From positions 43,941 to 107,940 of the IMG/VR virus record IMGVR_UViG_3300009826_000019: a stretch of DNA of 64,000 bases, one strand, 5' to 3'. Positions 1,219-58,687 of the stretch are shown here, one piece after another (within the stretch, counting starts at the first letter, position 1; each line of letters opens with the position of its first letter). Below the pieces are notes generated by a model that worked only from the letters and a program-made list of their open reading frames with translations, ran no database searches and was not told where the DNA came from. The DNA is from a virus. Its lineage: Duplodnaviria > Heunggongvirae > Uroviricota > Caudoviricetes. The translations under genes were made by a program, and so were the position numbers.

Positions 1219-1317
1219 CTATAAAAACCGTATAAAATAATCGTATTAACATTAACGTTTCTGAATTTGGTTATATGCGGTTTTTTTCTTTTGATAACAA
1301 TAACAAATAAAAACATA

Positions 1318-28500: not shown

Positions 28501-28572
28501 AGCGGTGTATTTCAATGGTTAGAATGACGGTCTCCAAAACCGTAGATGGGAGTTCGAGTCTCTCCACCGCTG
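28501..28572 (+). tRNA. tRNA-Trp (CCA)
   Basis: Acceptor AGCGGTG/CACCGCT; anticodon arm ACGGT-CTCCAAA-ACCGT; T-arm GGGAG-TTCGAGT-CTCTC; discriminator G then an encoded CCA. Confidence 0.75.
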
Positions 28573-28617
28573 CCAAGTGGGTTTAACACCCCCTGTTATT
28601 CATATTTTTTAAGAAAA

Positions 28618-31606: not shown

Positions 31607-31987
31607 TTAATATACTATTTCAATGAAATTAAACTTTAATTTAATGATAAAGGCATACTCCTCTCCCGATTCTAACATATCGTCATCATCGTGTTCATAA
31701 AACCAATTGATTGTTACACCCTTGTTGGTTTCATTAACTTTTTCCAATTTCTTGAAAACATCTAACAAACATTTGGAAGTACCTGTATTAAAGTATTCCA
31801 ATTTTATGTTGACGATTGTTTCCGGTTTTGCTGTTTTAACATAACCGTCTATCCATTCGACCAGGGGTATGAAAAAATCAATTGAATTTTCAAGAAGTGA
31901 CCTTCCTTTAATTTCAAGTAATCCCTGTTCAGCATCAAATACAATAGTCGGGGTTCGTGCCGTTCCTTCTAATATTAGTGTGTCCAT
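31607..31987 (-). CDS. DUF1987 (SiaC-like) protein
   Basis: Recalled family signature: LEGT..TPTIVFDAE.G.LEIKGRS...FNTGTSKCLLDVFKKL...INWFYEHDDDDMLESGEEY. Confidence 0.6.
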   Translation of the reverse strand: MDTLILEGTARTPTIVFDAEQGLLEIKGRSLLENSIDFFIPLVEWIDGYVKTAKPETIVNIKLEYFNTGTSKCLLDVFKKLEKVNETNKGVTINWFYEHDDDDMLESGEEYAFIIKLKFNFIEIVY

Positions 31988-34776: not shown

Positions 34777-35496
34777 ATGAATAATATTCAACAACAATTA
34801 CTAAAAGAGGTTAAGCGTGGTCAATCAGGTTACGGATTTCTATTTGAGAATGACGGATTTGTTGATCCTACTAACCAAAAACATATGTTAAATGAAGACA
34901 GAGATAGAAGTGAATGGTATATACCATTTCCTTATATTATCCACGCCGTCTTTCAAAAAGCGGATACCCCAAACGCCAACGGTAGAATATACCCAAGACC
35001 AATATTAGAAAGAGAACTTATAAAATATCAACTAAAAATCAGTGAAAGAAGGGCTTATGGTGAAAGTGACCACCCCGAATCAACCATTATATCCACAAAG
35101 GGTATTTCAATGAACATTATTAAATTATGGTGGGAAGGAAAAACTATTGTGGGTGATTTGGAAGTACCACTATCACATGGATTTGTGAAGAATGGTATTT
35201 GTAGCACTCCGGGAGATATTATTGCGAATAATATTTATTATAATAGGTTGAAACTTGGTGTTTCTTCGAGAGGTGTGGGTTCCGTGGAAGCAGGAAAAAA
35301 CAATATTAATGTTGTTGGAGACGATTTTGAACTTTTGTGTTGGGATTGGGTGACTGACCCTTCAACACCGGGTGCTTGGACAGCAAAAGATATGAGTGAT
35401 TTGAAACCTTATATTGAAAACACAGAAATCAAAACTTGTGAAAAGAAAATATTCATCATTGAAAAAGTTGATAAAGTATTACAAATTATAAAATAA
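34777..35496 (+). CDS. prohead core protease, T4 gp21-like
   Basis: Recalled T4 gp21 blocks: GRIYPRPILERE~KRLYPKRILEKA, GESDHP~GELNHP, IIKLWWEG~IIEDMWWKG, GVSSRGVGS~GVSSRGLGS, DPSTPGAWT~GPSAPDAWV. Confidence 0.8.
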   Translation: MNNIQQQLLKEVKRGQSGYGFLFENDGFVDPTNQKHMLNEDRDRSEWYIPFPYIIHAVFQKADTPNANGRIYPRPILERELIKYQLKISERRAYGESDHPESTIISTKGISMNIIKLWWEGKTIVGDLEVPLSHGFVKNGICSTPGDIIANNIYYNRLKLGVSSRGVGSVEAGKNNINVVGDDFELLCWDWVTDPSTPGAWTAKDMSDLKPYIENTEIKTCEKKIFIIEKVDKVLQIIK

Positions 35497-36665: not shown

Positions 36666-37499
36666 TTACCTCCCCACTTGTGGTAAATTAATCAAAGGTA
36701 CACCGGAACCACCACTATACATAGGGAGTTTTCCATCCCACTTTTCGATAGCGTATTGTTGAACGAGTAACATATTAAGTGATGCTGCAACAACCCTGTT
36801 GTAGTATGCTTCGCCGTCACCCTTAATTTTCAAGGCTTCCGCTTCACCACGCGCTTTAGTTACTTCGATTTCCGCTTGTGCTCTTGCACGAGCGACCTCA
36901 TTTTCCGCCCTCATCGCTTCCTGTACCATTCGGTTTCTTGAATCAATCGCCTCTACCAAACTTGCCGGTGGTGCAATCGCAGCCGTAAATTCAACAACCT
37001 GAAAACCTTGACTACCTAACGATTGTTCGAGCATTTCTCGGACTTGTGCCTCAAACTCACCACGCTTCGCCATTAATTCATCGGATGTGAAGAGGTTCCC
37101 AACAGTTCGATAAGCGTCAAACACACAGGTTAGAATAAATCCTTGTTCGATTTCCTTTATGGGTCTACGATATGTTAAAAACACATCAATCGCCTTATCG
37201 GGATTCAAACGGTACGCCAAGTTTGGTGTGATACGGAAAATTGCCGCATCCTTCGCATTAACGGTGATTTCACCATACGAAACTCGTTGTACGTACACCG
37301 GATACTGATGTACACTCTGTGTAAAGGGGTTAAACCACACAAAACCACGTACAGTTCCCATTACACCACCTTGTTTCTCTTCCGAAACACTCCACTTGTG
37401 GAATTTAATACCAACCGAGGTCGAATCGACCGTGGTACAACTTTGGGCGAACATCATAATCGCCACTAAACTCAAAATCCAAAAACTTCCTTTCTTCAT
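36666..37499 (-). CDS. SPFH/band-7 (stomatin/prohibitin/HflC-like) lipoprotein
   Basis: Signal with lipobox MFAQSC; SPFH core plus coiled-coil EAMRAENEVARARAQAEIEVTKARGEAEA. Confidence 0.75.
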   Translation of the reverse strand: MKKGSFWILSLVAIMMFAQSCTTVDSTSVGIKFHKWSVSEEKQGGVMGTVRGFVWFNPFTQSVHQYPVYVQRVSYGEITVNAKDAAIFRITPNLAYRLNPDKAIDVFLTYRRPIKEIEQGFILTCVFDAYRTVGNLFTSDELMAKRGEFEAQVREMLEQSLGSQGFQVVEFTAAIAPPASLVEAIDSRNRMVQEAMRAENEVARARAQAEIEVTKARGEAEALKIKGDGEAYYNRVVAASLNMLLVQQYAIEKWDGKLPMYSGGSGVPLINLPQVGR

Positions 37500-37563: not shown

Positions 37564-38562
37564 TTACTTAAAAACGTTACGATTTTCCCTAAAGAATTTC
37601 AATAACGTGGTTTCAGACCAACTAACCCTTTCGTCTGAACGAGAGGTTGGGGCAAACTTTTGTTCTATCGCGTCAATATACATTGTGTGAGAAAAATCAT
37701 CACCTTGATAATTTTCTTCCCAATATTTCGGCGGAATCTTGTTTTCCATATCCAACTGCTCAATAGAGAGGTTGTCGAAACTGATAACATTGGTGTAAGA
37801 TACAATTTTAATAATATTCCGATCCCATTCCACAATATTATTCTTAATATCCTCTGAATAAGATTTATAGTAATCTAATCCTCTACCAAACTCTTTATAA
37901 CCAAGCAATAGAAACTTTCGTAATCCGAAGCGGTCTCTTAACTGTGTTATAATTTCCGGTGTGTGTAGACCTATAATAAGGTGCGCAACTGTGTGTTCAT
38001 ACTTCAAAAAATACTCTTCGTCTGCTGAACACTTATCAATACCTTCTATTGGAATTGATACACCTAACCCATAAATCAATTTTTCTTCCATATAACGTTT
38101 CAATTCAACCGCATTACTTCCATGTAAGTGGTGAAAATTAACCGTCAAACTAGGGAATATCTTTTTTGTTTGACAGAATTGAAGAAGTAGTGGGAGGTCG
38201 GGATGTGATAATGGATTACCGCCGCCGACTGCCATTTCCTGTCCACCTGGTAACACATCCAAAACTTCTATCAACGCATTTATATCAGCGTGTTTTCCGT
38301 GAAAATGTGATTTTTCATGACAAAAAGCACAGGGTTTAAAATCACCCATACCATATTTAGATGGTATGCCCACACATTGGTTTGTGATTTTTATATCCAT
38401 ACTGTTCGGATAGTCAAACACAACAGGTTTGGTTTCGTCAAACTCCATTATTCGTGTACCATCTTCAAAAAGTTGGACTTTTACATTACCGTTTTGGTAG
38501 TTTATTATTTCTTTCATTGTGTTTTTTAAATTAACAATCATTTCCGAATTTTCCAAAAGCAA
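37564..38562 (-). CDS. radical SAM-like enzyme with non-canonical Cx14CxxC cluster motif
   Basis: NQC-VGIPSKYGMGDFKP-C-AF-C (C-x14-C-x2-C) followed by GGGNPLSHPDL, a GGEP-like SAM motif. Confidence 0.5.
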   Translation of the reverse strand: MLLENSEMIVNLKNTMKEIINYQNGNVKVQLFEDGTRIMEFDETKPVVFDYPNSMDIKITNQCVGIPSKYGMGDFKPCAFCHEKSHFHGKHADINALIEVLDVLPGGQEMAVGGGNPLSHPDLPLLLQFCQTKKIFPSLTVNFHHLHGSNAVELKRYMEEKLIYGLGVSIPIEGIDKCSADEEYFLKYEHTVAHLIIGLHTPEIITQLRDRFGLRKFLLLGYKEFGRGLDYYKSYSEDIKNNIVEWDRNIIKIVSYTNVISFDNLSIEQLDMENKIPPKYWEENYQGDDFSHTMYIDAIEQKFAPTSRSDERVSWSETTLLKFFRENRNVFK

Positions 38563-39250: not shown

Positions 39251-39802
39251 TTAATTTCTCCCCTGTCTTACTAAAATATATTTAGTTTCATCTTTGATAA
39301 CTTCCAAGAATGGATCAATTATCTTTTCCATAATTTCGTCAAATGAAAAATTCATTGTGTTCGTAAACTCTTCAATAAAACTAAATGTTACTTCACCCCT
39401 ATCTTCGTAAATAGAAATAGAGGTATCTTCGAGTACAACGTCATTATATGGTAAGTTCATTTTAATATAATGTATTGCTTTATAAACAATATCTTTGTCA
39501 AGACACAAATATCTTTGAACTGTACCATCACAATCACGTTTCATTTCATTCATATACAACATTAATAATGCCGCCTTTTCGTCAAATGTGTAAGCCACCC
39601 ATTGTTTTCCATTATAAAGGTCCCCACCACATTGGGTTTCGGTTGGTTCAGTGTATGTGTGATAGAAAACACTTGGGTATAAAATGTTTTTCTCAACCAA
39701 ACCCATTTTCTTCAAAGGAATTTTGGATTTCAGTTGAACTACCATTGTGTGAACTGAACTAGAATTTGTTTCAAATACACCTCTTCTAATAACTTTCTTC
39801 AT
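39251..39802 (-). CDS. GVFETNSSSxH-motif protein, paralogue 2
   Basis: N-terminus MKKVIRRGVFETNSSSVHT. Confidence 0.5.
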   Translation of the reverse strand: MKKVIRRGVFETNSSSVHTMVVQLKSKIPLKKMGLVEKNILYPSVFYHTYTEPTETQCGGDLYNGKQWVAYTFDEKAALLMLYMNEMKRDCDGTVQRYLCLDKDIVYKAIHYIKMNLPYNDVVLEDTSISIYEDRGEVTFSFIEEFTNTMNFSFDEIMEKIIDPFLEVIKDETKYILVRQGRN

Positions 39803-39892: not shown

Positions 39893-40579
39893 ATGATGGT
39901 AAACATAAAAAAATTGTACAAGTATGGTTACTTGGAAATAGAAGGTGATAGTGAAAATATATGGTTCACATCGGACTTACACTTATATCACAAAAACATT
40001 ATCAAACTTTGTAATAGACCATTTGCTGACGTTGAGGAAATGTCAAATACATTGGTCGAAAATTGGAATAGTGTGGTTAAAGAAGATGATTTGGTATTCA
40101 ATCTTGGGGATTTCTGTTGGTCAGAATGTTCTATCGTTTGGTCAAAACTCATAGATAAACTTAATGGTCGTCAAATTTTGATAAAAGGAAACCACGATCA
40201 CCCCAAAACATTACAAAAATTATCCGATAAATATTCTCTTATTGAAGTTTGGAAACCAGGGTCTAATTTCCCAATTAAGAATTTGAATAAGTTATTTATG
40301 ATAAGAGAAAGTTTAGAGGTGCGCCACAACGGGGAACGCTTTCTACTTAATCATTACCCACAAGCACATTATGTTGGACAATATCATTCCGTTAGACAAA
40401 TATTTGGGCACACCCATGAAAAATCATGTGCATATTCACCCAATCATTACAACGTTTGTGTTGAGCGAAACCTGTATCGCCCTGTATCATTGGAAGAGGT
40501 GGGAATGTTGCTGACAATGCAGTGTCGGGATAACGAAACAAATTATTTTTTAGAAGACCTACTATATAAAGAAACATAA
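39893..40579 (+). CDS. calcineurin-like metallophosphoesterase
   Basis: TSDLHLYH ... LGDFCW ... KGNHDHP metallophosphatase motifs. Confidence 0.7.
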   Translation: MMVNIKKLYKYGYLEIEGDSENIWFTSDLHLYHKNIIKLCNRPFADVEEMSNTLVENWNSVVKEDDLVFNLGDFCWSECSIVWSKLIDKLNGRQILIKGNHDHPKTLQKLSDKYSLIEVWKPGSNFPIKNLNKLFMIRESLEVRHNGERFLLNHYPQAHYVGQYHSVRQIFGHTHEKSCAYSPNHYNVCVERNLYRPVSLEEVGMLLTMQCRDNETNYFLEDLLYKET

Positions 40580-41109: not shown

Positions 41110-41490
41110 ATGGTACATACAATTATAATCGGTGTTTGGATGACATTGTTATTTATAACATTGTCTGTTGTTTTCGTATATATGTTTAAGAAACCAAAAC
41201 ATAATATAAACGAGGTTTTTGAACAAATATTTAAGAAACAAGTTGATTTGTTAAAAAAAATTGACGAAGAAAACACAATGCAAGTAGAGGTGTTTGATAA
41301 ACTTAACCATAATATTGTAGAGAATTATCGCATACTATTGCAAATACAAATAAAAGAATCTATTAAACACAACCCCTTTGAAACAGAACATATTCTAAAA
41401 TTATATAACGATTACATTGGTATTGCCAAATATCCGAACACAGTTTTAGATGATGCGGTTAATGAGTGGAGAAACCTATACGGTTATTAA
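41110..41490 (+). CDS. bitopic membrane protein
   Basis: Hydrophobic segment IIIGVWMTLLFITLSVVFVYMF. Confidence 0.5.
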   Translation: MVHTIIIGVWMTLLFITLSVVFVYMFKKPKHNINEVFEQIFKKQVDLLKKIDEENTMQVEVFDKLNHNIVENYRILLQIQIKESIKHNPFETEHILKLYNDYIGIAKYPNTVLDDAVNEWRNLYGY

Positions 41491-42086
41491 CAAATAAATT
41501 CCACCATACCACTATCCAAATAGAGATATGCGCCAACAATTTTTATATCACCATTTTTTTCCTTTTCACGTAAAAAACGATATTCCCGAATTGTATTTAC
41601 AGATTGTTGAACATTTGTTCGACACACCAAATCAAAGAAACCAGGATTAGACGATACGGTTTCACCACCATAAATAATATCCGCACTTGCTCGTACCGCC
41701 GGTAGTATTGGGCGAAGTTTTCCTAACAAACCCCAATCCTTTTCCTCTGTATCAATAACACGTTTGACAGCAGCACAATTATCATGTCCCAAAACCATTA
41801 CCAAATTCACGGAAGGAAAACTACAAGCAAATACCAAATCAAATAAAATTTCATTGGTAATAACATTCCCCGATGTGCGAATTGTAATAACATCACCCGC
41901 ACCCAATTTAAAAATATCTTCAACCACAATACGAGAATCTATACAAGTTACTATCACCGCTTTCGGTGTTTGTTCCTTAATACTATGGGGTTTGTCGTTA
42001 ACATATTCTTTGTTACGACATTTTAAAACTTCAAGTGTCGGGTGAGGCACTTCTTCTTTCTTTTTGAATTTAAAAAAATCTTCCAT
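41487..42086 (-). CDS. beta-class carbonic anhydrase
   Basis: CIDSR...GDVITIRTSGN...VLGHDNCAAV carries the Cys/His/Cys zinc-ligand pattern. Confidence 0.75.
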   Translation of the reverse strand: MEDFFKFKKKEEVPHPTLEVLKCRNKEYVNDKPHSIKEQTPKAVIVTCIDSRIVVEDIFKLGAGDVITIRTSGNVITNEILFDLVFACSFPSVNLVMVLGHDNCAAVKRVIDTEEKDWGLLGKLRPILPAVRASADIIYGGETVSSNPGFFDLVCRTNVQQSVNTIREYRFLREKEKNGDIKIVGAYLYLDSGMVEFIC

Positions 42087-43062: not shown

Positions 43063-43827
43063 ATGAGTATTCAAGAAGAAGAAATAAAGAAATTGAAGGA
43101 GGAAAATGAGTTGTTGAAAAAGCGTTTGGATAACGCAAACAAACTCAAATCAACCTTTCTTGCTAATATGAGCCACGAAATTAGAACACCGTTAAACGCT
43201 ATTGTGGGGTTTTCTAATTTTTTAACCGAATGTGAAGAATTAACCGAAAGTGAGCGCAACGAATTTATTAACATTATTCAACAAAATAATGATTACTTAT
43301 TGAAAATCATTGACGATATTTTAGAACTCTCTAAAATTGAAAGAGATCAAGTCTTTATTAATAATGTTAAACTGAAACTAAATCAGTTTTTAGGTGGATT
43401 GATTAATGAGAATAAGAAAAAAATTAACCCCAATAGGAAAGTCGAATTAATATTAGACGATGTGGATTTTATTGAAAATTGTCTTATTGAAGTTGATGCC
43501 ATAAAATTAGAGCAGATACTTAATAATCTTATTGATAATGCTATTAGATTCACATTGAGTGGATATGTGTTAGTTGGGTATAAACAAATACCGGGTTTCA
43601 TTGAATTTTATGTTGAAGATAGTGGAGTTGGAATACCCAAAGAAAAATTAGAACACGTTTTTAATAGTTTTTACCAAATCAATAGTGCTATATGTCCCGA
43701 TTCGGGAATGGGCGTTGGGTTATTTATTTCAAAAAACTATGTTAAAAGAATGGGTGGTGTTATGGGTGTAAGTTCAGTCGAAGGTGAAGGTAGTAGATTT
43801 CATTTTACCATACCATATCTTGTATAA
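43063..43827 (+). CDS. orphan cytoplasmic histidine kinase (HisKA + HATPase_c, no TM, no receiver)
   Basis: H-box MSHEIRTPLNAI; N/G boxes LNNLIDNAIRF, DSGVGIP, GMGVGL, GGVMGV. Confidence 0.8.
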   Translation: MSIQEEEIKKLKEENELLKKRLDNANKLKSTFLANMSHEIRTPLNAIVGFSNFLTECEELTESERNEFINIIQQNNDYLLKIIDDILELSKIERDQVFINNVKLKLNQFLGGLINENKKKINPNRKVELILDDVDFIENCLIEVDAIKLEQILNNLIDNAIRFTLSGYVLVGYKQIPGFIEFYVEDSGVGIPKEKLEHVFNSFYQINSAICPDSGMGVGLFISKNYVKRMGGVMGVSSVEGEGSRFHFTIPYLV

Positions 43828-43903
43828 TAATTAAAACACAGATAAAAAATAAATATTTAACTATTTATTCATAAAGAATAAAAATAAATTATGATATAAT
43901 GCT

Positions 43904-44395
43904 ATGAGCGATTTATTGATTAAAATGCCGTTGGTTTACGAACCATTAAGACAAAATAGGTTTCTGTTGAGGTTTCCTTCTGATCTTGGAATACAAGAAT
44001 GGTGGGTAAAAGACACTGTTAGACCAACTTTGGAACTACCGTCAAAAGAAATTGAATTTATGAATACCTCAACTTGGATTACAGGAAGATACAAGTGGAA
44101 GGCAATGACTGTTAAGTTAAGAGATACTATTGGTCCTTCTACAAGTCAAGCTGTGATGGAGTGGGTACGTTTACATGCGGAATCTGTGACCGGCCGTATG
44201 GGTTACGCCGCTGGTTACAAACGTAATTGTGAATTGGAAATGTTAGACCCAACCGGTGTTGTTGTTCAAAAATGGATATTGGTGAATTGTATGTTATCAG
44301 GTGATATTAATTTCGGAAGTTTAAGTTATACATCGGAAGAAATTGCTGAAATAGATTTTTCTATACAACCCGACTATTGTGTATTAGCATACTAA
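43904..44395 (+). CDS. tail tube protein, T4 gp19-like
   Basis: 163 aa; recalled T4 gp19 ends F.RPN.F and LALDYWE resemble YEPLRQNRFLLRF and SIQPDYCVLAY. Confidence 0.6.
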   Translation: MSDLLIKMPLVYEPLRQNRFLLRFPSDLGIQEWWVKDTVRPTLELPSKEIEFMNTSTWITGRYKWKAMTVKLRDTIGPSTSQAVMEWVRLHAESVTGRMGYAAGYKRNCELEMLDPTGVVVQKWILVNCMLSGDINFGSLSYTSEEIAEIDFSIQPDYCVLAY

Positions 44396-44422
44396 TACAA
44401 CACAATATTTACAGAATACAAG

Positions 44423-44458
44423 CGAATTATGATGGTATTACCATCATATATTCGTTTT
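44423..44458. terminator. bidirectional terminator hairpin
   Basis: Near-perfect inverted repeat CGAATTATGATGGTA / TACCATCATATATTCG followed by TTTTGT. Confidence 0.65.
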
Positions 44459-44459
44459 G

Positions 44460-44660
44460 TTATTTGTATATGTATTGAATGTTCAACTCTTTTTCTGAAC
44501 GCACGTGTTCTCTCCAATTATCAAGACACTCCGCGCTTAATTCTTGTTTATCTGACGTGAACAAGTAATTTACGCCACCGTCATCGTCTATGATTTCTAA
44601 AAATTGAACGCCGTAGTGCATAACGTCATTTACTTTATCGTAAGCCTGTACTGTTAACAT
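44460..44660 (-). CDS. hypothetical protein
   Basis: ORF track. Confidence 0.4.
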   Translation of the reverse strand: MLTVQAYDKVNDVMHYGVQFLEIIDDDGGVNYLFTSDKQELSAECLDNWREHVRSEKELNIQYIYK

Positions 44661-44953
44661 TGTTTTAATATGGTATTATTAAGTTTATTACCCATCCATT
44701 CACAAAGTCGGATTAGGTGTTCTATTGTTAAATCTGTATCGTCTGTGTATTCTTGTAATTCACATGGGTCATCACAATACTTACCGAGACAACCTATTAG
44801 TTGTTTTCTTGGATACAACTCTTCGTTATTTGTCCAACCCTTTTCAATAAGGTCGAGTTCGTGGGTACAACCACCACAAACTTCTTGACATGATTTACAG
44901 ACAAAGTGTCCTCTTAATTTCCATTCTATATTATTCATATTACAAATATACAA
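44654..44953 (-). CDS. Cys-rich protein
   Basis: CKSCQEVCGGC...C..C. Confidence 0.45.
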   Translation of the reverse strand: MYICNMNNIEWKLRGHFVCKSCQEVCGGCTHELDLIEKGWTNNEELYPRKQLIGCLGKYCDDPCELQEYTDDTDLTIEHLIRLCEWMGNKLNNTILKQC

Positions 44954-45131
44954 TAAATGCTATTTATATAAAATTAGAATACGATATGAGTGAAAAGGAT
45001 ATTGAGAAATGGTTTAAGAAACAACTTGAAAGTCGTGATTTTGAAAAGACGATAAAAAAAATAATCTCCAAGAGTTTTGAAGATTATTTAACTATGATGT
45101 ATCAGCAACGTCATTTTCTCAAAAACCAACT

Positions 45132-45821
45132 TTAAACACAACTTATAACACGTAAGGTGTGTGTTGAACTATTTAACAAAGTACCTTGTGCTGTGTTCAT
45201 TTCCGTAACGGTTATTCTAAACTGATAAATTTCGCCAACTTGTGCGGTTGCGGGAATAGTAACAGAAATAACACTATTATTATTACCATTCAGATTGTAA
45301 TACGGACCCGCACTTCCGGTTAACCCCCTATCCCAAATTGTTAATAGACTTGGATTATTATAGATTGTTCCACTCGGATAACTTTCTTGTGCAAATGTTG
45401 TAACATTTCCTGTTATATTTGTGTCTTTTATTCCAAAAGCAATTGTTACCACATGTCGTGTACCATTACTTCTTCCTCTCCAACTACCACCTAAATAAAC
45501 TGTGGTTTGTTGTCCAGCACAAACACCTGTGATTTGTGGTGGGTTGGGGTTGTTTGTTCTTGGTGCTGTCAAATGGTAATTTATATTAGTACCGTTACTT
45601 ATATCCGGCGTATCCGGTGGTTTTAAGGTAATGATATTAATATCTTTTATTGCTTCGCCGCAGCGATTAGAAAACTTTATTGTAACGGGAAATACAGCAT
45701 CTTGTTCGGGAGTGCAGGATATTTCCCCTGTTCGCTCATTTAATTGTGAACCTGGGGGTAACACACCTTCTGTGATTTCCCAAAATCCTGGTATCCCTTT
45801 ATGTAAAATTTGTCGTATCAC
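45132..45821 (-). CDS. Ig-like (He_PIG-type) domain structural protein
   Basis: GIPGFWEITEGVLPPGSQLNERTGEISCTP...FPVT; GTG start. Confidence 0.5.
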   Translation of the reverse strand: MIRQILHKGIPGFWEITEGVLPPGSQLNERTGEISCTPEQDAVFPVTIKFSNRCGEAIKDINIITLKPPDTPDISNGTNINYHLTAPRTNNPNPPQITGVCAGQQTTVYLGGSWRGRSNGTRHVVTIAFGIKDTNITGNVTTFAQESYPSGTIYNNPSLLTIWDRGLTGSAGPYYNLNGNNNSVISVTIPATAQVGEIYQFRITVTEMNTAQGTLLNSSTHTLRVISCV

Positions 45822-45898
45822 AATTCTTGGTTTTTCTTATATGGATAAATATACGAAATTTTGAAATAATTCTAAAATTAAGTAAAATAATATTCCCA

Positions 45899-46243
45899 TT
45901 AGGATTTTTCTAACATTTCGATTGCAGCACCGATATTGGGTGTGATATTTAATATAGTATCAAGTTGTGATATAAAAATCAGGCGTTCCACCGCTTCGTT
46001 CAATCCACTGAGGATAAATTTACCACCGGCGTTTTTACACAACCTGTGGGCAACAAGAATTGCACCTAAGCCGGAAGAGTCACAGTATTTGCACATTTCC
46101 AAGTTCAAAATAATGTTCTTCTCACCATTCCCTGATATTAAGACTAATTCGGATTTGAGTGTTGGTGCAATATGTGTGTCTAATTTTTGTTGTTGTACAC
46201 TGATAACGGTGTGTGTAACGTTTTGGTCAATTTTTAAGTTCAT
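45899..46243 (-). CDS. STAS-domain protein (anti-sigma-factor antagonist-like)
   Basis: 114 aa; LDTHIAPTLKSEL...LEMCKYCDSSGLGAIL...GGKFILSGLNEAVERL has SpoIIAA-like topology. Confidence 0.65.
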   Translation of the reverse strand: MNLKIDQNVTHTVISVQQQKLDTHIAPTLKSELVLISGNGEKNIILNLEMCKYCDSSGLGAILVAHRLCKNAGGKFILSGLNEAVERLIFISQLDTILNITPNIGAAIEMLEKS

Positions 46244-46898: not shown

Positions 46899-48599
46899 AT
46901 GTACAAAAATAATTATGCAACCATAGAAGAGAGTATAGGTAGGATGCAGAAACTTATGGGCAACACCGCGCCGGTGGTTCGCACGGAACAAGTGCTTGGA
47001 AACATTGAAAAGGTGTATAGGGGTCATGATAATAATGCTTATGCTATTGTAAAAGAAAATTCACACTACTATTTAAAAGTATCAGGAAAAACATCAGATT
47101 TGTCTTTGAACGATTTTGAATATTTGGGTGGAAACAGACAATGTAAAAATCTGTATGAATATAGTTCCTTTGCCAATGCAGAGAAGTTCCTTAAAGAACA
47201 TTTAATTACCTTGAACCAACAGGTTAACAACCAAGAATTACTTAAAGAAGAAGCAAAACGTGTTGATACCAACCTTGAAAAAACCGCTACTTCAACAGCA
47301 ATGCGCAGTGAAATAGACCGTATTCGTGAGATTATGGAAAACACCAATAGAATTAATAAAGGTGGTAGTGCAAGTGTTGTTAAGAAATCTCTAAACGAAA
47401 AAGTAAATATCGCTAACGAAGAGAGTGGTATGATTACCGATAGTGTGAACGAAGAACCCGTAAACGAAATTATTAGCAATGCTATTAAAAATGTTGCTAG
47501 TGGAATTGGTAATATGGGTGCCGGTGTTATTCACGGTCAAACAACAGAAGGAAGCGAAGAACCTGTGAATGAATTTGTCAGTAACGCCATAAAAAACGTT
47601 GCTAGTGGAATTGGTAATATGGGTGCCGGTGTTATTCACGGTCAAACAACAGAAGGAAGCGAAGACGACGAACTTGAACTCGAATTAGACGGTGATGACG
47701 AATTTGATTTAGACGACGAATTTGACAGCGAAGAAGAAAATGAATTTGAAGAAGATTTGGAAGACGAATTTGACGGTGAAGAAGACGAAGAAATGTCAAT
47801 GCTAAATGCTTTAATGGATAAGTTGAATAGTATTGAAGAAAAATTAGACGGTGCTGACAGCGAAGAAGGTGAATTTGAAATAGATTTAGACGACGATAGC
47901 GAAGGTGAATTTGATTTAGACGAATGTGGTGTAGTTGGTGAAGGTGACGATATTGAAGAAGCGTTTCTATCTGACAAACTCAACGCAAAATATGGTACAT
48001 TACCAAAACAAGCCGATGAAGCAAAAGCAAATTTTGAAAGAGTTATCACATCTTGGTTGGAAAGAGACCGACCTGGTATGAGTCCAACAGAATTAGCAAA
48101 CGCACTTAAAGCAAAAATAGACGAAATAGTTGCCGAAGAAGAATCAGACGATATTGATAACCCACTGTTTGATGACCCCGATGACAGAATGACGGGTACT
48201 ATGGGTGAAGCCAATATGAAAAGAATGGTTCAAAAAATTATTAAAGAAACTATTAGTACAATCGCTTCTGATGTAACAAAAGATAATTTTGGATATACTA
48301 ACGCCGAACCGGATAGTAAAGGTAGAACGAGTTTTGATAACCCAAAAGCCGAAAAAGAAATTGGTTTAGGTAATCACCACGAAGATACACTTGATCAAAT
48401 TAAATCAACAACAGGAAATCATTCTAAACCTTCAACAGGTAGTACACCAGCAGGTAAAGTTGCTAACGTTATTGACGATATAGAAGTTGAAATCGTTGAT
48501 TGTTGTGAGTCAAAAAACAAAAAACCTCTCTACATTGTAGAACAAGACGGAACAGTTATTGGTAAAATTGCACGTGAAACGTTGAAGAAGCGTAAATAA
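46899..48599 (+). CDS. highly acidic low-complexity protein (566 aa) with 37-aa tandem duplication; putative scaffold/internal head protein
   Basis: EEPVNE(I/F)(I/V)SNAIKNVASGIGNMGAGVIHGQTTEGSE x2; long D/E tracts; antisense ORFs rejected. Confidence 0.55.
   Translation: MYKNNYATIEESIGRMQKLMGNTAPVVRTEQVLGNIEKVYRGHDNNAYAIVKENSHYYLKVSGKTSDLSLNDFEYLGGNRQCKNLYEYSSFANAEKFLKEHLITLNQQVNNQELLKEEAKRVDTNLEKTATSTAMRSEIDRIREIMENTNRINKGGSASVVKKSLNEKVNIANEESGMITDSVNEEPVNEIISNAIKNVASGIGNMGAGVIHGQTTEGSEEPVNEFVSNAIKNVASGIGNMGAGVIHGQTTEGSEDDELELELDGDDEFDLDDEFDSEEENEFEEDLEDEFDGEEDEEMSMLNALMDKLNSIEEKLDGADSEEGEFEIDLDDDSEGEFDLDECGVVGEGDDIEEAFLSDKLNAKYGTLPKQADEAKANFERVITSWLERDRPGMSPTELANALKAKIDEIVAEEESDDIDNPLFDDPDDRMTGTMGEANMKRMVQKIIKETISTIASDVTKDNFGYTNAEPDSKGRTSFDNPKAEKEIGLGNHHEDTLDQIKSTTGNHSKPSTGSTPAGKVANVIDDIEVEIVDCCESKNKKPLYIVEQDGTVIGKIARETLKKRK
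47449..47660 (+). repeat. 111-bp tandem duplication (two units) within 46899..48599
   Basis: The 3' ~65 bp of each unit are identical; the 5' halves differ at synonymous or conservative sites. Confidence 0.85.
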
Positions 48600-49394: not shown

Positions 49395-51311
49395 TTAATT
49401 AACTTCTTCCGCTTCCTGTGGTCCACCGGCGGTTGCTTTACTGAAATCAAAATCACCAAATGGGTTGTCCGCACCCATATTAGCAAACGGATTGCTTGGG
49501 TTTCCACCACCAGGGTTATTTGCCGCATACAATCTTGTTGAAATCGGTATCCACACCTCATCCATTTTCTTTGCTAACTCATCCACCTTTTCGTGGTTTT
49601 CGGTTTTAATAACTTCCTTCAATTCGTCAATCACCGTTTGGATTTTTATTTTTTCCTCATCGGTAATTTTATCACCCATTTCGTCAATTTGTTTTTCGGT
49701 TGAGAAAATTATGGAGTCCGCCTTATTCATAGCTAAAACCTTTTCCATTTTTTTCTTATCCGCTTCGGCGTTATCTTCTGCTTCACGTTTCATTCTTTCA
49801 ACCTCTTCTGACGATAATCCTGATGAAGATTGAATGGTGATATGTTGTTCTTTGTTTGTCCCTTTATCAGTTGCTTTAACAGACATAATACCGTTGGCAT
49901 CAATACTAAATGTTACCTCTATTTGTGGTGTACCGCGCCTTGCCGGTGGAATACCATCTAAATCAAATTGACCTAATAGTTTATTATCATTGAAAGAGGG
50001 GCGTTCACCTTGGGCTACGCGAATGGTTACTGCCGGTTGGTTATCAACTGCTGTGCTGAAAATTTGTGATTTTGAAACAGGGATTGTTGTGTTCGCATCA
50101 ATAAGTTTTGTGAACACACTACCCATAGTTTCGATACCTAATGAAAGTGGTGTGACATCTAAAAGTAGAACGTCTTGTGTTTCACCACTTAACACAGACC
50201 CTTGAACTGCTGCTCCAAGGGCAACAACTTGGTCGGGATGTACACTTTTGTTTGGTTTTCTCCCAAAAAACTTCTCAACAGCCTCTTGTACAGCGGGAAT
50301 ACGAGTACTACCACCAACAAGAATTACTTCGTCAATATCACTTGTGGTTATACCTGCGCTTTTCAATGCTGATTTACAAGGTTCGATTGTGCGTTTAACG
50401 ATAGTTTCTATCATTTGTTCAAATTTCGCACGTGTAATCGTTTGCACGAGGTGTTTTGGTACACCGTCAACCGGCATAATGTATGGAAGATTTATTTCTG
50501 TTTGAACTGAACTTGACAACTCAATTTTCGCCTTCTCAGCGGCTTCTTTCAGGCGTTGTAATGCCATTGGGTCTTTTTTCAAATCAATGGCGTATTCCTT
50601 ATTAAATTCGTCAGCAAGATAATTTATAATGACATGGTCAATATCATCACCCCCCAACCTTGTATCGCCGTCAGTGGATTTGACTTCAAACACACCACCA
50701 CCGAGTTCAAGTATTGATATATCGAATGTACCCCCACCGAAGTCAAATACAGCAATTTTCATATCGTCTTTCTTATCTAAACCAAAAGCCAATGCTGCTG
50801 CCGTAGGTTCATTAATTATACGAGCGACTTCTAATCCGGCTATTTCACCCGCTTCTTTGGTTGCTTGACGCTGTGAATCGGAAAAATAAGCCGGTACAGT
50901 GATAACTGCTTTAACCACCTCTGTTCCAAGAAAATCTTCCGCTGTTTTCCGCATTTTTTGCAGGATTATTGCTGAAATTTCTTGTGGGGAATATTCTTTA
51001 TTTTCAATTTTAACACGAATAGTGTCATTAGTACCACTTACAAGTTCGTATGCAACTTTATCCTTTTCGTTGTTGATTGAACTATATTTTTCACCCATAA
51101 AACGCTTTATGGAATAAACCGTTTTTGTTGGATTAGTTACCGATTGGCGTTTCGCGGAATCTCCCACAACACGCTCACCGTCTTTTATAAAACCAACAAT
51201 TGAGGGGGTGGTGTCCTTCCCCTCACCGTTTGGAATAACCATTGGCTTACCACCTTCTACTACTGAAACACAAGAGTTACTTGTGCCTAAATCTATACCT
51301 ATTATTTTCAT
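49395..51311 (-). CDS. dnaK: Hsp70 chaperone DnaK
   Basis: [17 protein letters not shown]...; full-length 638 aa with canonical ATPase and substrate-binding regions. Confidence 0.9.
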
Positions 51312-51328
51312 ATTAAATATTTATTTTT

Positions 51329-51796
51329 TCAATTTATATCAATTTTTCTAATTGTGGGTTGTTCGGTAGAACTCCACATTTTATCTATAACAATCTCCAA
51401 AATACCATCCACAATATGTGAAGTAGTAGTATCTAAATCACAATCTTTTGGAATGGTAAATGTTTCTTTACCGGGTTTTGTGTTGAAATGAAAACCATTA
51501 TCACGTGGTTTATACTCCACAGTTAGAGTATAATCTTGTAATGTGATTTCAATATCATTTTTTGATAATCCTGGAACCAACAATTCAATCGAATGAGTGT
51601 GTGCATCACTCTCGATATGACAGTTTGATCTACCTATACCGTATGATACAGTATAACTTGGTGGCGCAATTATGTCTTGCGCACGTGGGAGAATACCCCA
51701 CCATGGGCTTGTATCCTCACTTGGTAAAAAATCACCCACATGAAATCTATATGGATAATTACCTGTACCTGTTCTTATGTTACAACAACTTTTCAT
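51329..51796 (-). CDS. small heat-shock protein (Hsp20/alpha-crystallin family)
   Basis: 155 aa; ACD-like LLVPGLSKNDIEITLQDYTLTVE...GILEIVIDK. Confidence 0.75.
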   Translation of the reverse strand: MKSCCNIRTGTGNYPYRFHVGDFLPSEDTSPWWGILPRAQDIIAPPSYTVSYGIGRSNCHIESDAHTHSIELLVPGLSKNDIEITLQDYTLTVEYKPRDNGFHFNTKPGKETFTIPKDCDLDTTTSHIVDGILEIVIDKMWSSTEQPTIRKIDIN

Positions 51797-51908
51797 ATTA
51801 TATAATTATTATTATTATTTATTTTTACATTTACCACTATTCAAAGAGTGTGCCAAAGGATTTTTGTCACAAAAAAAGATGTTTTTTGTGACAAAATATG
51901 ACAGATTG

Positions 51909-52160
51909 TCATACTTGTCCTTCATCTACTGACACCTTTGCAGTATTGAACCGGCGTGAAATACGACCTCTTGTCAGATCGTATGGCGACATTTCTATTT
52001 CGACTTTATCACCAACTAAAATTTTAACGTAGTTTTTGCGTATTTTACCTGATATTACACACAGCACCATGTGTTCGTTTTCCAACTCAACGCGAAAGGT
52101 GGCGTTACCCAACGCTTCTGTAACTATACCTGTTTGGATTATAAGATTCTTTTTACCCAT
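51909..52160 (-). CDS. infA: translation initiation factor IF-1
   Basis: [57 protein letters not shown] nearly collinear with bacterial IF-1 as recalled. Confidence 0.85.
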
Positions 52161-52521
52161 TTTCTTTTTTTATAAATTGTTTTAAATATTTCATTTCGAT
52201 ATGTTTCTTAATAATATCCCCATGACATGACTTCGGCGCACAAAAACAACCAAGACATATGTTTTCACCACGTATATACATATCATATATTTCGTCTATT
52301 TTCTCTCTAAATGTGGGGTTATTTTCATAGTTTTCAAGAAAATATTCTTGGTATTTTGCAATTGCGGTTTCTCTATCTGATACCGTGTATTGCGCTAACG
52401 TTCCTGTTTTGGTACTATATGGATTACCCAATATGTTATTTTCTCTGTTTCTACCTATGTAGAAATACACACCATCGTTTGGGGTGTGTTTATTAATGTT
52501 TATTACTTCTATACTTCCCAC
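52153..52521 (-). CDS. DUF4326-family protein
   Basis: [15 protein letters not shown] ... [15 protein letters not shown] signature. Confidence 0.55.
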
Positions 52522-54816: not shown

Positions 54817-55647
54817 CTAATTTAACCTTTCTTCTCTAAATTCACAAATATCCAACAAACAAAAGTCTATGTTATTTACCCTCGTTGTTTGTGTTGCATG
54901 AAAATGCCCATAATACCATTTTGATAATATTTTCTGATTATCTTTAATTTTATAGAAATTATTATCCATTGTTTTACGCTCTGTATCCACATCATATTTC
55001 AATTGCATATCCACCATTATCCAACTTTGGATACCGCTCTTTGTATATGGATAAACAAATGACGGTGCAGTATGTGATGCAATAATATCAATGTTATTCG
55101 GGAATTTTTTATTGATTTCATCTATCTTTGATTCATTATATATGGGCATTTCACCTTCCCAATAATATTTTCTACCGGGTTTTTCACGTTCCCACCTCCA
55201 ACGTTCAGTTCTATCAACACTCAATCCACCACCAATACATAATATATTTTTAGAAATGGTAAAGATTGGGGGTGCAAAATATAAAGAGTTGTCATCTTGT
55301 GGAAGTTCTCTTGTGTAAAATATTTCAATAACAGTGTAATCAGATACTAAATGAATGTTGGAATATGATTTGGAATATACGCCGTCAAAATATTTTGGGT
55401 CATCGTGATTTCCTCGAACTACAACAAGGTGATTCTTTTTCTTTTTTAGTTTGCTGTTGAGTTTCTTCAACTCCACTTTATTGTGTTCTTCGGAATGAAA
55501 ACCAATACCAAAATCACCAAGTTGAATGATTACATAGTTTTCCAATTGGTATTGTACACTTGCTTTGTGTGCAAGGGTACTCCATTGTCCGTGAACATCG
55601 CCAACAAAGGTTAATCCATTGGCATCATTAAATTTTATTGTATTCAT
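54817..55647 (-). CDS. metallophosphatase (PPP/ApaH-like)
   Basis: GDVHGQ ... GDFGIG ... RGNHD motifs. Confidence 0.65.
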   Translation of the reverse strand: MNTIKFNDANGLTFVGDVHGQWSTLAHKASVQYQLENYVIIQLGDFGIGFHSEEHNKVELKKLNSKLKKKKNHLVVVRGNHDDPKYFDGVYSKSYSNIHLVSDYTVIEIFYTRELPQDDNSLYFAPPIFTISKNILCIGGGLSVDRTERWRWEREKPGRKYYWEGEMPIYNESKIDEINKKFPNNIDIIASHTAPSFVYPYTKSGIQSWIMVDMQLKYDVDTERKTMDNNFYKIKDNQKILSKWYYGHFHATQTTRVNNIDFCLLDICEFREERLN

Positions 55648-55648
55648 T

Positions 55649-55975
55649 TTATCCGTTACTTAATGTTCTAACTCTTTTATTACCACCCATTTCAACAACT
55701 TTAATACCACTTGGATCAACAAATGGTTGTTGTTCAACCATCGGTTCAACAACAGGTGGAACAACTTCTTTTTCTAAAACTACATCATTTTTCGGAACTT
55801 CCAAAACGGAGGGTGTTACCTCTTTTGGTTTTACAAACGCCGGTTCTTCACCATACACATAGGATACGTGCACCTTTTCTATTAGTTCGTTAATATATTC
55901 ATTAACGTCTAAATCATTCGCAGCACAATATTCTTCAATAGATTTAATCAATCTTTTCTTAAAAACAAATTTCAT
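55649..55975 (-). CDS. hypothetical protein
   Basis: ORF track. Confidence 0.45.
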   Translation of the reverse strand: MKFVFKKRLIKSIEEYCAANDLDVNEYINELIEKVHVSYVYGEEPAFVKPKEVTPSVLEVPKNDVVLEKEVVPPVVEPMVEQQPFVDPSGIKVVEMGGNKRVRTLSNG

Positions 55976-56037
55976 ATAAGTTCAATTTTATTAAAAATAC
56001 TATTTATAATAAAATAAAACTAATTATATTAAAAGTC

Positions 56038-56508
56038 ATGGCGTTAATTAATGGTCAAAGTTGTCTTGAAAACATAGGTCTGGGTCACAGACCGGTTTTG
56101 TTGATGAAGAACGAATATCAAAAAGAAGAAGCATACGATGTCAATCACCCCAACGCTCTTGCTACCGGTGATGGGCGTGGTCGTGGTACGGCACATGGTG
56201 GTCATACACACTCAATACCTGATTGTACAAAAGCAGAATATATTGGTGAACATTTTCAATCACCTATTGAAGCACAAATAGATAGTAATATTGATTCAGG
56301 TCCGAACCAAACAGGTGCGGGAGATTGTGTTGACGTGAATGGTCGTCTTGGTTTAGCACACAGTGGGCGTAATGCTCTAATTGGAATAAATATTTATGAT
56401 CATATAAATACTTATGGTGCGCACTCTGTAAATACTGAATTGAACGTTAATGACGGTCAGTTCGTTGTTGGATATAACGAAAGAACACCGATTCTTTGTG
56501 CAACATAA
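56038..56508 (+). CDS. hypothetical protein
   Basis: ORF track. Confidence 0.5.
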   Translation: MALINGQSCLENIGLGHRPVLLMKNEYQKEEAYDVNHPNALATGDGRGRGTAHGGHTHSIPDCTKAEYIGEHFQSPIEAQIDSNIDSGPNQTGAGDCVDVNGRLGLAHSGRNALIGINIYDHINTYGAHSVNTELNVNDGQFVVGYNERTPILCAT

Positions 56509-57325: not shown

Positions 57326-57802
57326 TTATTCTTCCTCAAAATCACTTTCATCACCAACACGATGGTTAATTAAAACAGAATCTAATGGTATAGAAAGCGT
57401 ACACTCATATCTAATAGGGTCATCATTTACAAGATTAAACCCTGTAATATAATATGGTTGTCCGTCAATCATTATTTCCATTTGTCCTTTAAAATCAATG
57501 GTAGTACCCTCTTTGTGAAGGCGACACCACTCCATAAGTGCTTCGGATACGCTGGGTTCGGTGTCTTTTTCGGTAAATGTCATTTCAATATTACTCCAAT
57601 GTAATTCTTTATGATTATTCGCAATCTTATCCACAAGTTGTTCTTCCAAAGATATTTCACTTTCAAGTCGTTTTTTACATTCTTGAAGAACTTCTTGGAT
57701 AATATTATCTTCCGGCGTTACATATTCATATTTAGTAAACATTGGACTATCTACTTCCCCAATATTGAGAGGGGGTGTCATTTCATTACTTTCATTATTC
57801 AT
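57326..57802 (-). CDS. tail-tube-family paralogue (158 aa)
   Basis: ORF 57326..58111 trimmed because its N-terminus overlaps tRNA genes; EALMEWCRLHKEG resembles QAVMEWVRLHAES of 43904..44395. Confidence 0.45.
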   Translation of the reverse strand: MNNESNEMTPPLNIGEVDSPMFTKYEYVTPEDNIIQEVLQECKKRLESEISLEEQLVDKIANNHKELHWSNIEMTFTEKDTEPSVSEALMEWCRLHKEGTTIDFKGQMEIMIDGQPYYITGFNLVNDDPIRYECTLSIPLDSVLINHRVGDESDFEEE

Positions 57803-57855
57803 ATCATTTTTTCTATAAATATACAGTATTTTAAAATAACATTGAATTATATGTG

Positions 57856-57936
57856 AGCGGATAGTGGGACTCGAACCCACACGCCTTTCGGCACTAGTTC
57901 CTAAGACTAGCGCGTATACCATTCCGCCATATCCGC
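57856..57936 (-). tRNA. tRNA-Leu (TAG), class II
   Basis: Acceptor GCGGATA/TATCCGC; anticodon arm CTAGT-CTTAGGA-ACTAG; long variable arm GCC-GAAA-GGC; T-arm GTGGG-TTCGAGT-CCCAC. Confidence 0.8.
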
Positions 57937-58002
57937 ATATTATCACAAATATTTGCACTGTTATCATAGGTATTGATAATAGTGCAATTTTATTTGATAA
58001 TG

Positions 58003-58075
58003 TATGAGTGGAGGGATTCGAACCCCCGATTTCGTGGTCCCAAACCACGCGCCATACCAACTTGACCACACCCAT
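58003..58075 (-). tRNA. tRNA-Pro (TGG)
   Basis: Anticodon arm CGTGG-TTTGGGA-CCACG; acceptor ATGGGTG/CACTCAT with one G-U. Confidence 0.7.
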
Positions 58076-58082
58076 GTTGTTG

Positions 58083-58154
58083 ATGTTCCACCAGGACTTG
58101 AACCTGGACAAACAGATTCAAAATCTGTTGTGCTAACCATTACACAATGGAACA
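58083..58154 (-). tRNA. tRNA-Gln (TTG)
   Basis: Acceptor TGTTCCA/TGGAACA; anticodon arm ACAGA-TTTTGAA-TCTGT; T-arm CCAGG-TTCAAGT-CCTGG. Confidence 0.75.
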
Positions 58155-58160
58155 ATGTAG

Positions 58161-58233
58161 CTGGGATAGTAGGTCACGATCCTACGACCTGCGGATTAAC
58201 AGTCCGATGCTCTACCAACTGAGCTATATCCCA
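58161..58233 (-). tRNA. tRNA-Asn (GTT)
   Basis: Anticodon loop CTGTTAA; T-arm GTAGG-ATCGTGA-CCTAC has an unusual A54/T58; acceptor TGGGATA/TATCCCA. Confidence 0.6.
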
Positions 58234-58240
58234 ATTTTGC

Positions 58241-58311
58241 GGTCGATGTGGGATTCGAACCCCTCCTCTACCGTGACAGGGTAACGTGCTAACCATTACA
58301 CTACACCGACC
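58241..58311 (-). tRNA. tRNA-Asp (GTC), possibly non-canonical T-stem
   Basis: Anticodon arm TTACC-CTGTCAC-GGTAG; acceptor GGTCGGT/ATCGACC; T-stem has two mismatches. Confidence 0.5.
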
Positions 58312-58317
58312 ATTTTG

Positions 58318-58393
58318 GGTGAGAGAGGAGAATCGAACCCCCGACCTTCTGATCCACAATCAGACGCTCTAACCTACCTGAGCTACCCTCACC
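58318..58393 (-). tRNA. tRNA-His (GTG) with encoded G-1
   Basis: Extra 5' G pairs with discriminator C73; anticodon arm TCTGA-TTGTGGA-TCAGA. Confidence 0.75.
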
Positions 58394-58401
58394 ATATATT
58401 G

Positions 58402-58474
58402 TAGTCGGTACGGGACTCGAACCCGTTTCTCCACCTTGAAAGGGTGGTGTCCTGACCAATTAGACGAACCGACC
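58402..58474 (-). tRNA. tRNA-Glu (TTC)
   Basis: Anticodon arm CCACC-CTTTCAA-GGTGG; T-arm ACGGG-TTCGAGT-CCCGT. Confidence 0.8.
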
Positions 58475-58483
58475 ATATTTTTG

Positions 58484-58568
58484 TGGAAAGGGTAGGATTC
58501 GAACCTACGAAAGTCCGAAGACAGCGGAGTTACAGTCCGCCCCAATTGACCAACTATGGGACCTTTCC
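58484..58568 (-). tRNA. tRNA-Tyr (GTA), class II
   Basis: Acceptor GGAAAGG/CCTTTCC; anticodon arm GCGGA-CTGTAAC-TCCGC; variable arm GTC-TTCG-GAC; T-arm GTAGG-TTCGAAT-CCTAC. Confidence 0.75.
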
Positions 58569-58569
58569 A

Positions 58570-58609
58570 AACATTTTATCCAAAATAATATTCACATATT
58601 ATTCCGATC
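58570..58609 (-). promoter_or_regulatory. PeSL-like promoter element inside the tRNA cluster (minus strand)
   Basis: Minus strand reads AAGATCGGAATAATATGTGAATATTATTTTGGATAAAATG just upstream of tRNA-Tyr. Confidence 0.5.
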
Positions 58610-58614
58610 TTATG

Positions 58615-58687
<73 letters not shown>

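Follow-up and report, generated by a model that had tools for sequence, protein, structure and literature searches.

A jumbo phage that most likely infects Bacteroidales was found to carry three genes for host-type signalling proteins: the core of a histidine kinase without a sensor, a STAS protein, and a SiaC-family protein. The genes lie in a 64,000-nucleotide stretch of DNA, here called the window (positions 43,941 to 107,940 of IMG/VR record IMGVR_UViG_3300009826_000019), which is part of a phage genome of ~367 kb. Judging from their sequences, we consider the chances about even that the phage captured these genes separately, has kept them functional, and interferes with host signalling by means of them. 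A sequence-only reading of this DNA had named these three open reading frames (ORFs), together with two metallophosphatase genes, as one combined kit. All five ORFs exist, and the three signalling genes are as follows:

43063..43827, + strand: histidine kinase core, 254 amino acids (aa), comprising a coiled-coil linker, DHp/HisKA, and CA/HATPase_c (Pfam, NCBIfam, motifs)
45899..46243, - strand: single-domain STAS protein of the SpoIIAA/RsbV type, 114 aa (Pfam, TIGR00377, PDB)
31607..31987, - strand: SiaC-family (DUF1987) phospho-switch protein, 126 aa (Pfam, PDB)

The kinase matched the Pfam families HisKA (2.1e-19, 69.7 bits; cut-off 26.9) and HATPase_c (6.1e-24, 85 bits), and in NCBIfam it aligned solely to the DHp and CA cores of TorS, BarA, ArcB, PnpS, and similar kinases. 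The H-box (H38-E-I-R-T42) and the N, G1, F, and G2 boxes are intact, with H38, E39, T42, N155, N159, D186, G188, G190, F200, F203, G215, G217, and G219 invariant across 18 homologues. A charged, coiled-coil-like linker (residues 1-28) is all that precedes the DHp domain, and an upstream extension of the ORF is impossible, with a 144-bp intergenic gap to the divergent gene. No PAS, GAF, HAMP, transmembrane, or receiver (REC) domain was detected in the protein, nor any other input domain. Both Pfam and the alignment thus agree with the sequence-only reading in its description of a kinase with a coiled-coil N-terminus, intact H-box and N/G1/G2 boxes, and no sensor, transmembrane segment, or receiver.

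The kinase core is 43-47% identical to those of PAS- and hybrid histidine kinases of Bacteroides/Bacteroidales, and its bacterial homologues are orphan (PAS-)histidine kinases with no adjacent regulator, unlinked to STAS or siaB-siaC. These results suggest that the protein is most likely the bare DHp and CA core of a Bacteroidales PAS or hybrid histidine kinase. By its domain content it falls in the two-component HisKA class and not among the RsbW/SpoIIAB/SiaB-type Ser/Thr kinases that would act on STAS or SiaC, which does not support the earlier suggestion that it joins the STAS and DUF1987 proteins in one kit. Because no sensor is present, the kinase is expected to be signal-independent. The H-E-x-x-T motif is tied to phosphatase activity in HisKA kinases; since the phage protein has this motif, it could either charge or drain a host receiver-domain protein, as a kinase or as a phosphatase. 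The best non-self kinase match (P0002) proved to be a bacterial gene beside groES/groEL, with a high score that derives from a duplicated kinase segment.

The STAS protein matched PF01740 over residues 6-107 (2.6e-15, 56.5 bits; cut-off 22.6) and passed the NCBIfam model TIGR00377 'anti-sigma factor antagonist' (63 bits; cut-off 53.45). Its PDB sequence matches (SpoIIAA 1AUZ, 1.2e-12; 1TH8, 4.5e-12; RsbV 6M36, 3.6e-8) likewise agree with the SpoIIAA/RsbV type assigned earlier. Residues D55-S56-S57-G58 align on the DSSG phospho-loop of SpoIIAA, and all 23 aligned sequences have this motif; in the 1TID variant it reads DASG, with Ala at the Ser corresponding to phage S56. The protein is 66.7-72.8% identical to Bacteroidales orthologues and retains 59 of the 65 columns that are invariant among bacterial orthologues. 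It is also the most divergent member of the alignment, with 69% identity between phage and bacteria vs 82% among bacteria. The STAS gene is followed on its own strand, after 77 bp, by a 229-aa ORF with a GTG start (45132-45821, - strand). The N-terminus of the product resembles an He_PIG/Ig-like motif (GVLPPGSQLNERTGEISCTP), and the ORF gave no profile match; this is probably a structural or adhesin-like protein and not a signalling partner.

The third protein matched PF09345 over residues 7-123 of 126 (4.5e-40, 136.5 bits; cut-off 24.5). This family, formerly DUF1987, is now named 'SiaC family regulatory phosphoprotein', in agreement with the sequence-only reading; the HisKA/HATPase_c, STAS, and DUF1987 assignments thus all hold in profile searches. 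Against NF038265, the model for the Pseudomonas aeruginosa-type SiaC of SiaABCD, the score of 84.7 bits is below the equivalog cut-off of 150, so the phage protein is a member of the SiaC family and not a strict equivalog. In the alignment with PDB 6KKO_C/6K4F_U (1.5e-14), phage N67-T68 falls on N67-T68 of SiaC, while S69 beside T68 is replaced by G and the C-terminus has diverged. In SiaC, the patch that contacts the target consists of N67, T68, and S69; the unphosphorylated protein binds the target and activates it, and SiaB blocks this by phosphorylating T68 (PMC8457831). The phage protein is 55.6-63.2% identical to Bacteroidales orthologues, retains 46 of 60 columns invariant among bacterial orthologues, and is the most divergent member (59% identity between phage and bacteria vs 75% among bacteria). 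The homologue closest to it (62%) lies behind siaB on a clearly bacterial contig, from samples whose accession series is also that of the phage.

The next-best homologues of all three proteins in a collection of 5.8 billion protein clusters are bacterial, and for STAS and SiaC the closest ones all belong to metagenome-assembled genomes of uncultured Bacteroidales/Bacteroidota. In 79 of 80 species-level genomes the bacterial STAS gene is flanked by rpsA (ribosomal protein S1) and rnz (RNase Z), and a siaB-siaC pair follows 3.6-8.0 kb downstream on the same strand in 44 of the 52 loci with enough sequence; siaB is directly 5' of siaC in all 46 host pairs. The DUF6272 protein of these pairs is a SiaB-family kinase (NF038262, 137 bits, cut-off 85; PDB 6KKO_A, SiaB, 8.7e-10). 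The host loci examined held siaB-siaC pairs only, with no diguanylate cyclase beside the host genes. The conserved gene order in these 80 Bacteroidales/Bacteroidota genomes (L098-L177) is rpsA-STAS-rnz-guaA-(second SiaC-like gene, 131 aa)-S41 peptidase-rlmL-siaB-siaC.

It is therefore well supported by sequence that two genes of one conserved Bacteroidales neighbourhood in the host lineage gave rise to the phage STAS and SiaC, which have since diverged; from this neighbourhood the phage appears to have acquired the substrates and not the SiaB kinase. The three phage genes differ by 27-54% from their nearest bacterial homologues, have intact ORFs, are flanked by phage and not host genes, and have the GC content of the phage; where bacterial-invariant columns of STAS and SiaC are altered, the changes are mainly conservative. 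This combination of divergence, retained invariant positions, and phage GC content points to old acquisitions under selection rather than recent passengers or chimeras.

The three genes are dispersed and do not form an operon. They lie 11-14 kb apart among unrelated genes, the kinase on the + strand and STAS and SiaC on the - strand in separate units. Partners were sought over ~84 of the ~367 kb (the window and 10 kb on each side). Among ~100 window ORFs swept with Pfam, none matched a receiver domain, a HATPase_c_2/RsbW-type kinase, SiaB, PP2C/SpoIIE, sigma-70, or a GGDEF domain, and tblastn of the window with host SiaB and with CheY was negative. No Response_reg domain was found in the 64-kb window or in the precomputed Pfam annotation of the 10-kb flanks, which is consistent with the earlier remark that the kinase has no cognate response regulator in the window. 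SiaA, SiaB, and SiaD are all absent from the window, and with them a complete SiaABCD-type system. A 183-aa ORF (39251-39802), equal in length to host DUF6272, was tried as a SiaB candidate and rejected, since neither Pfam nor tblastn with host SiaB gave a match. In Rfam, with riboswitches and among them the cyclic di-GMP (c-di-GMP) classes covered, only tRNAs matched. The only relevant addition from the flanks lies ~8.4 kb left of the window start in the same phage (L094, 1564-1905): a stand-alone 113-aa winged-helix protein of the OmpR/PhoB type (Trans_reg_C, 1.3e-13), which represents the output half of a response regulator without a receiver. The combined kit proposed earlier is not supported, as the genes are spread over two strands and the window has no anti-sigma kinase, PP2C, sigma factor, diguanylate cyclase, or receiver. 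The two metallophosphatase genes of that proposal are:

39893..40579, + strand: calcineurin-like phosphoesterase, outside the signalling set (Metallophos_2 24.3 bits, under the cut-off of 27; phrog_547 'phosphoesterase' 2.1e-44; PDB 1XM7, aq_1665 hypothetical, 8.6e-13)
54817..55647, - strand: calcineurin-like metallophosphoesterase, outside the signalling set (Metallophos 3.5e-12, over cut-off; phrog_1649 'metallo-phosphoesterase' 5.9e-18; no informative PDB sequence match)

Both belong to phosphoesterase families as claimed, one of them under the Pfam cut-off with its phrog_547 match, and their supposed role in STAS/SiaC switching is not supported: they are calcineurin-like (PF00149/PF12850) and not PP2C/SpoIIE. 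The phosphatases of partner switches are PP2C enzymes, and there is hence no reason to link two phosphoesterases of common phage families with STAS or SiaC.

In partner-switching systems, the unphosphorylated switch protein is the active binder, and SpoIIAA and RsbV sequester the anti-sigma kinase. Extra unphosphorylated STAS and SiaC expressed by the phage would soak up host kinases (those of the SiaB family and whichever kinase acts on STAS) and may also bind host output partners directly. Host partner-switch outputs would then be held in the state of an unphosphorylated switch, whatever the host senses. The overall mode would be stoichiometric interference by switch proteins that keep S56 and T68 and have no SiaB kinase, phosphatase, or output protein with them in the window; we propose it from domain logic, the close likeness to host orthologues, and the finding of no partners in cis. 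Separately, the sensorless kinase would act as a signal-independent kinase or phosphatase on a host receiver-domain protein. By analogy with RsfS-RsfR-RsfB, a link between the kinase and STAS or SiaC would be possible only through a host REC-PP2C phosphatase, and we found no evidence for one. Taken further, these predictions would amount to the first viral take-over of Ser/Thr partner-switching by mimicry, in which STAS and SiaC jam or lock a conserved Bacteroidales module alongside a constitutive sensorless kinase; we hold this stronger claim only tentatively, as somewhat doubtful.

STAS and SiaC are essentially undescribed in phages in the resources searched. Neither matched a PHROG family at E<=1e-3, tblastn found no match to either in 50,697 GenBank phage records, and motif-anchored scans of IMG/VR, which rely on exact conserved peptides so that distant STAS families could escape, yielded no STAS relative and one SiaC relative. 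The latter (L093, 10001-10372, in the 166.6-kb record IMGVR_UViG_3300022890_000011) is 55% identical to the window SiaC and 68% to host SiaC, keeps the FNTSSS motif intact, and has no siaB neighbour. It adjoins a TnpB/IS605-type gene, ClpP, and a Dam methylase, and the contig also has a homing endonuclease. Literature searches on phage STAS, SiaC, or histidine kinases found nothing specific.

Histidine kinases are not rare in viral collections; the phage protein stands out by being a bare core. Matches to it comprise seven PHROGs and 122 IMG/VR stretches, including contigs of 300-675 kb; among the best 80 IMG/VR matches, all complete histidine kinase ORFs are at least 355 aa long, compared with 254 aa here. 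In the 735-kb megaphage LR756501 there is a hybrid kinase of 737 aa (PAS-HisKA-HATPase_c-REC). The view that such proteins were undescribed for phages therefore stands for STAS and SiaC (PHROGs, GenBank, IMG/VR) and does not for histidine kinases (PHROGs, LR756501). The surroundings of a 'two-component sensor histidine kinase' in GenBank record MW462191 ('Bacteriophage sp.', L263) look bacterial, with GlnE, aminopeptidase N, HigB, and ParS/CprR-like genes. Some database 'phage' kinases are thus probably contamination, and GenBank 'phage' matches of this kind are weak precedent, the LR756501 kinase being a better one. Two IMG/VR loci with a histidine kinase and Hsp70 (L206, L207) were rejected as relatives, as only the DnaK-like gene is common to them and the window.

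We weighed several other explanations for the three genes. A single coordinated pathway, for example one in which the kinase acts through a host REC-PP2C phosphatase on the phosphorylation of phage and host STAS/SiaC with the metallophosphatases helping, is unlikely. Such cascades from a histidine kinase through REC-PP2C to STAS are known in bacteria (RsfS-RsfR-RsfB, PMC10950880), the three genes lie within 15 kb of each other in a genome otherwise consisting mostly of ORFans, and STAS and SiaC come from one host neighbourhood; however, their different strands and transcription units, with structural and unrelated genes between them, the kinase class, which is wrong for direct STAS/SiaC phosphorylation, and the host homologues of the kinase, which are orphan PAS-histidine kinases unlinked to STAS/SiaBC, all count against it, and the phosphoesterases are generic phage families, not PP2C, with no REC-PP2C seen in the window. 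A circuit internal to the phage, with STAS, SiaC, or both switching an anti-sigma kinase, sigma factor, or effector encoded elsewhere in its genome to time phage expression and the kinase acting on a phage receiver, also seems unlikely to us. The inspected ~84 kb leave much of the genome in which such partners could lie, jumbo phages often encode their own transcription factors (PMC7824862), and the receiver-less OmpR-type DNA-binding protein stands just beyond the window; yet no such partner occurs within the 84 kb, and the likeness to host orthologues (up to 73% for STAS and 63% for SiaC), with nearly all host-invariant positions retained, fits host partners better.

Recent host DNA or an assembly chimera, in which the genes would be functionless passengers without a role in infection, would agree with the tendency of jumbo phages to accumulate host-like genes and with the lack of phage relatives carrying them. 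We regard this as quite improbable, because the same arrangement recurs on independent contigs from several samples and assemblers, the flanking genes are those of a phage and not of a host, and the 27-54% divergence with intact ORFs, conserved catalytic and phospho-sites, and phage-like GC content suggests old acquisitions under purifying selection. Least credible, and in our view very remote, is a counter-defence decoy in which the phage STAS serves as a surplus substrate or antagonist for CapK/CapS-type regulators and keeps antiphage operons repressed: the phage protein copies the housekeeping-context rpsA-STAS-rnz protein and not the DNA-binding CapS, has 114 aa without a DNA-binding extension, and has no CapK/CapS context in its host loci.

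Several points also count against interference with host signalling by separately captured genes. Action of the phage proteins on the host's partners, its direction, and a possible cooperation of all three are predictions from sequence. The remaining ~284 kb might encode partners, and the receiver-less OmpR-type winged-helix protein lies 8.4 kb outside the window. How SiaC is recognised by a kinase or by its target could be changed by S69G and the diverged C-terminus. Neither GenBank phages, nor the IMG/VR scans, nor a search anchored on the tail tube gave a related phage carrying any of these genes, and we found no literature on the rpsA-STAS-rnz...siaB-siaC arrangement or on the outputs of Bacteroidales STAS or SiaB-SiaC modules.

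Structural genes place the window firmly in a phage, as had been assumed: a T4-like portal gene (58971-60950), an S77 prohead protease (34777-35496), and a tail tube gene next to the kinase. The kinase, STAS, and SiaC proteins are identical on 5-6 contigs from several samples, the longest public one of which (ena:ERZ27264051:k141_2927976) has 367,985 bp. Both ends of this contig map to 55335-56250 of the window, inside or adjoining the gene 54817-55647, with an overlap of ~0.9 kb (coordinate arithmetic from two look-ups). Because both ends fall inside the window and overlap, we infer a genome of ~367 kb that is circularly permuted or terminally redundant and essentially complete. No DNA relative was found by megablast of 10 kb against GenBank phages, and the portals of Microcystis and Flavobacterium myoviruses and of huge metagenomic phages share no more than 34% identity with that of the window. 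With the tail tube as anchor, 80 IMG/VR loci were obtained (identity at most 68%, contigs of 232-380 kb); these share no neighbour gene with the window and are absent from the histidine kinase and SiaC result lists.

Most window ORFs have no family assignment. Other features are:

43904..44395, + strand: tail tube (gp19-like), 76 bp 3' of the kinase gene on the same strand (phrog_4542 tail tube, 7.7e-21)
41487-42086, - strand: beta-class carbonic anhydrase, two genes upstream of the kinase (Pro_CA 5.3e-28; NF011765 129 bits)
36666-37499, - strand: SPFH/Band-7 protein
37564-38562, - strand: radical-SAM-like Fe-S oxidoreductase beside the SPFH/Band-7 gene (phrog_16999)
within 49395-52521, - strand: full-length Hsp70/DnaK, 638 aa (Pfam 3e-245)
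51329-51796, - strand: Hsp20
51909-52160, - strand: IF-1/eIF-1A-like protein
52153-52521, - strand: DUF4326 protein
57855-58687 (-), 1145-1219 (+), and 28501-28575 (+): 11 tRNA genes in total, nine of them in one tight cluster

A terminator-like hairpin was found at 44428-44448, 3' of the tail tube gene, and a sigma-70 promoter scan gave matches at the level of shuffled sequence. The kinase gene might possibly be co-transcribed with this late structural gene. The tRNA cluster is overlapped by a mechanically called ORF (57326-58111), for which the true gene is shorter (213 aa in public gene calls). Host-like genes for proteostasis and translation are grouped in the region 49395-52521 on the - strand. 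In the other SiaC-bearing viral record, a gene distantly homologous to that of the oxidoreductase is found 6 kb away from SiaC (L093, 2858-4117). Approximately 45 small same-strand ORFs occupy positions 1-28000 (+), with a GC skew of +0.2 to +0.34 and nearly no family matches (GmrSD_N, TerB_C, and KH_2 only). A highly acidic 566-aa protein (46899-48599, + strand) has long D/E-rich tracts, no family match, and a near-exact internal duplication of ~40 aa (…EEPVNE..SNAIKNVASGIGNMGAGVIHGQTTEGSE…).

If the partner-switching take-over were true, it would mark the host STAS and the SiaB-SiaC module as important for the outcome of infection. Should the phage copies act on the host, they would provide natural probes for a little-understood module that hundreds of Bacteroidales species have in common, as well as a new class of phage 'auxiliary regulatory genes' working by substrate or antagonist mimicry. 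If the three genes are unrelated captures, they are a modest addition to the list of host-like genes in jumbo phages. The 254-aa kinase core is possibly useful as a compact, signal-independent kinase/phosphatase for studies of receiver specificity. The conserved and unstudied rpsA-STAS-rnz...siaB-siaC arrangement is the most interesting by-product of this analysis and deserves study in itself.

Among documented systems, the RsfS-RsfR-RsfB pathway of Mycobacterium smegmatis is the only wiring that places a HisKA kinase and a STAS antagonist in one pathway (PMC10950880), whereas no REC-PP2C was found in the window, and the resemblance is hypothetical. The phage STAS is like SpoIIAA and RsbV in fold family by sequence, length (~115 aa), and the DSSG loop with its phospho-acceptor Ser; it differs in having no adjacent anti-sigma kinase, sigma factor, or PP2C, and its orthologues lie between rpsA and rnz and not in a sigma-factor operon. 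With SiaC of P. aeruginosa SiaABCD (6KKO, 6K4F, 6KKP), the phage protein shares its family and the N67-T68 positions, and the host-lineage orthologue, as in Pseudomonas, has a SiaB-family kinase as its partner gene; unlike SiaC, it is under the equivalog cut-off, has S69G, and has no SiaA, SiaB, or SiaD in the window. The T4 anti-sigma factor AsiA, which has been discussed for jumbo phages (PMC7824862), is similarly a small phage protein, and STAS and SiaC are likewise predicted to bind host regulatory proteins; however, AsiA has a phage-specific fold and acts on sigma-70 directly, whereas STAS and SiaC are copies of host switches, one to two steps upstream of the output. The kinase has the HisKA and HATPase_c core of the Bacteroides/Bacteroidales PAS- and hybrid kinases (43-47% identity) with all catalytic boxes, and its core is 40.6% identical to that of the megaphage LR756501 kinase, which has PAS and REC domains in 737 aa; unlike all of these, it has no PAS, GAF, transmembrane, or receiver domain. 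Regulators derived from hosts are already known from phages, among them sigma and anti-sigma factors and quorum-sensing receptors. The present finding is a variation on the known theme of host-derived regulatory genes in large phages, among which partner-switch phosphoproteins are new in the resources searched.

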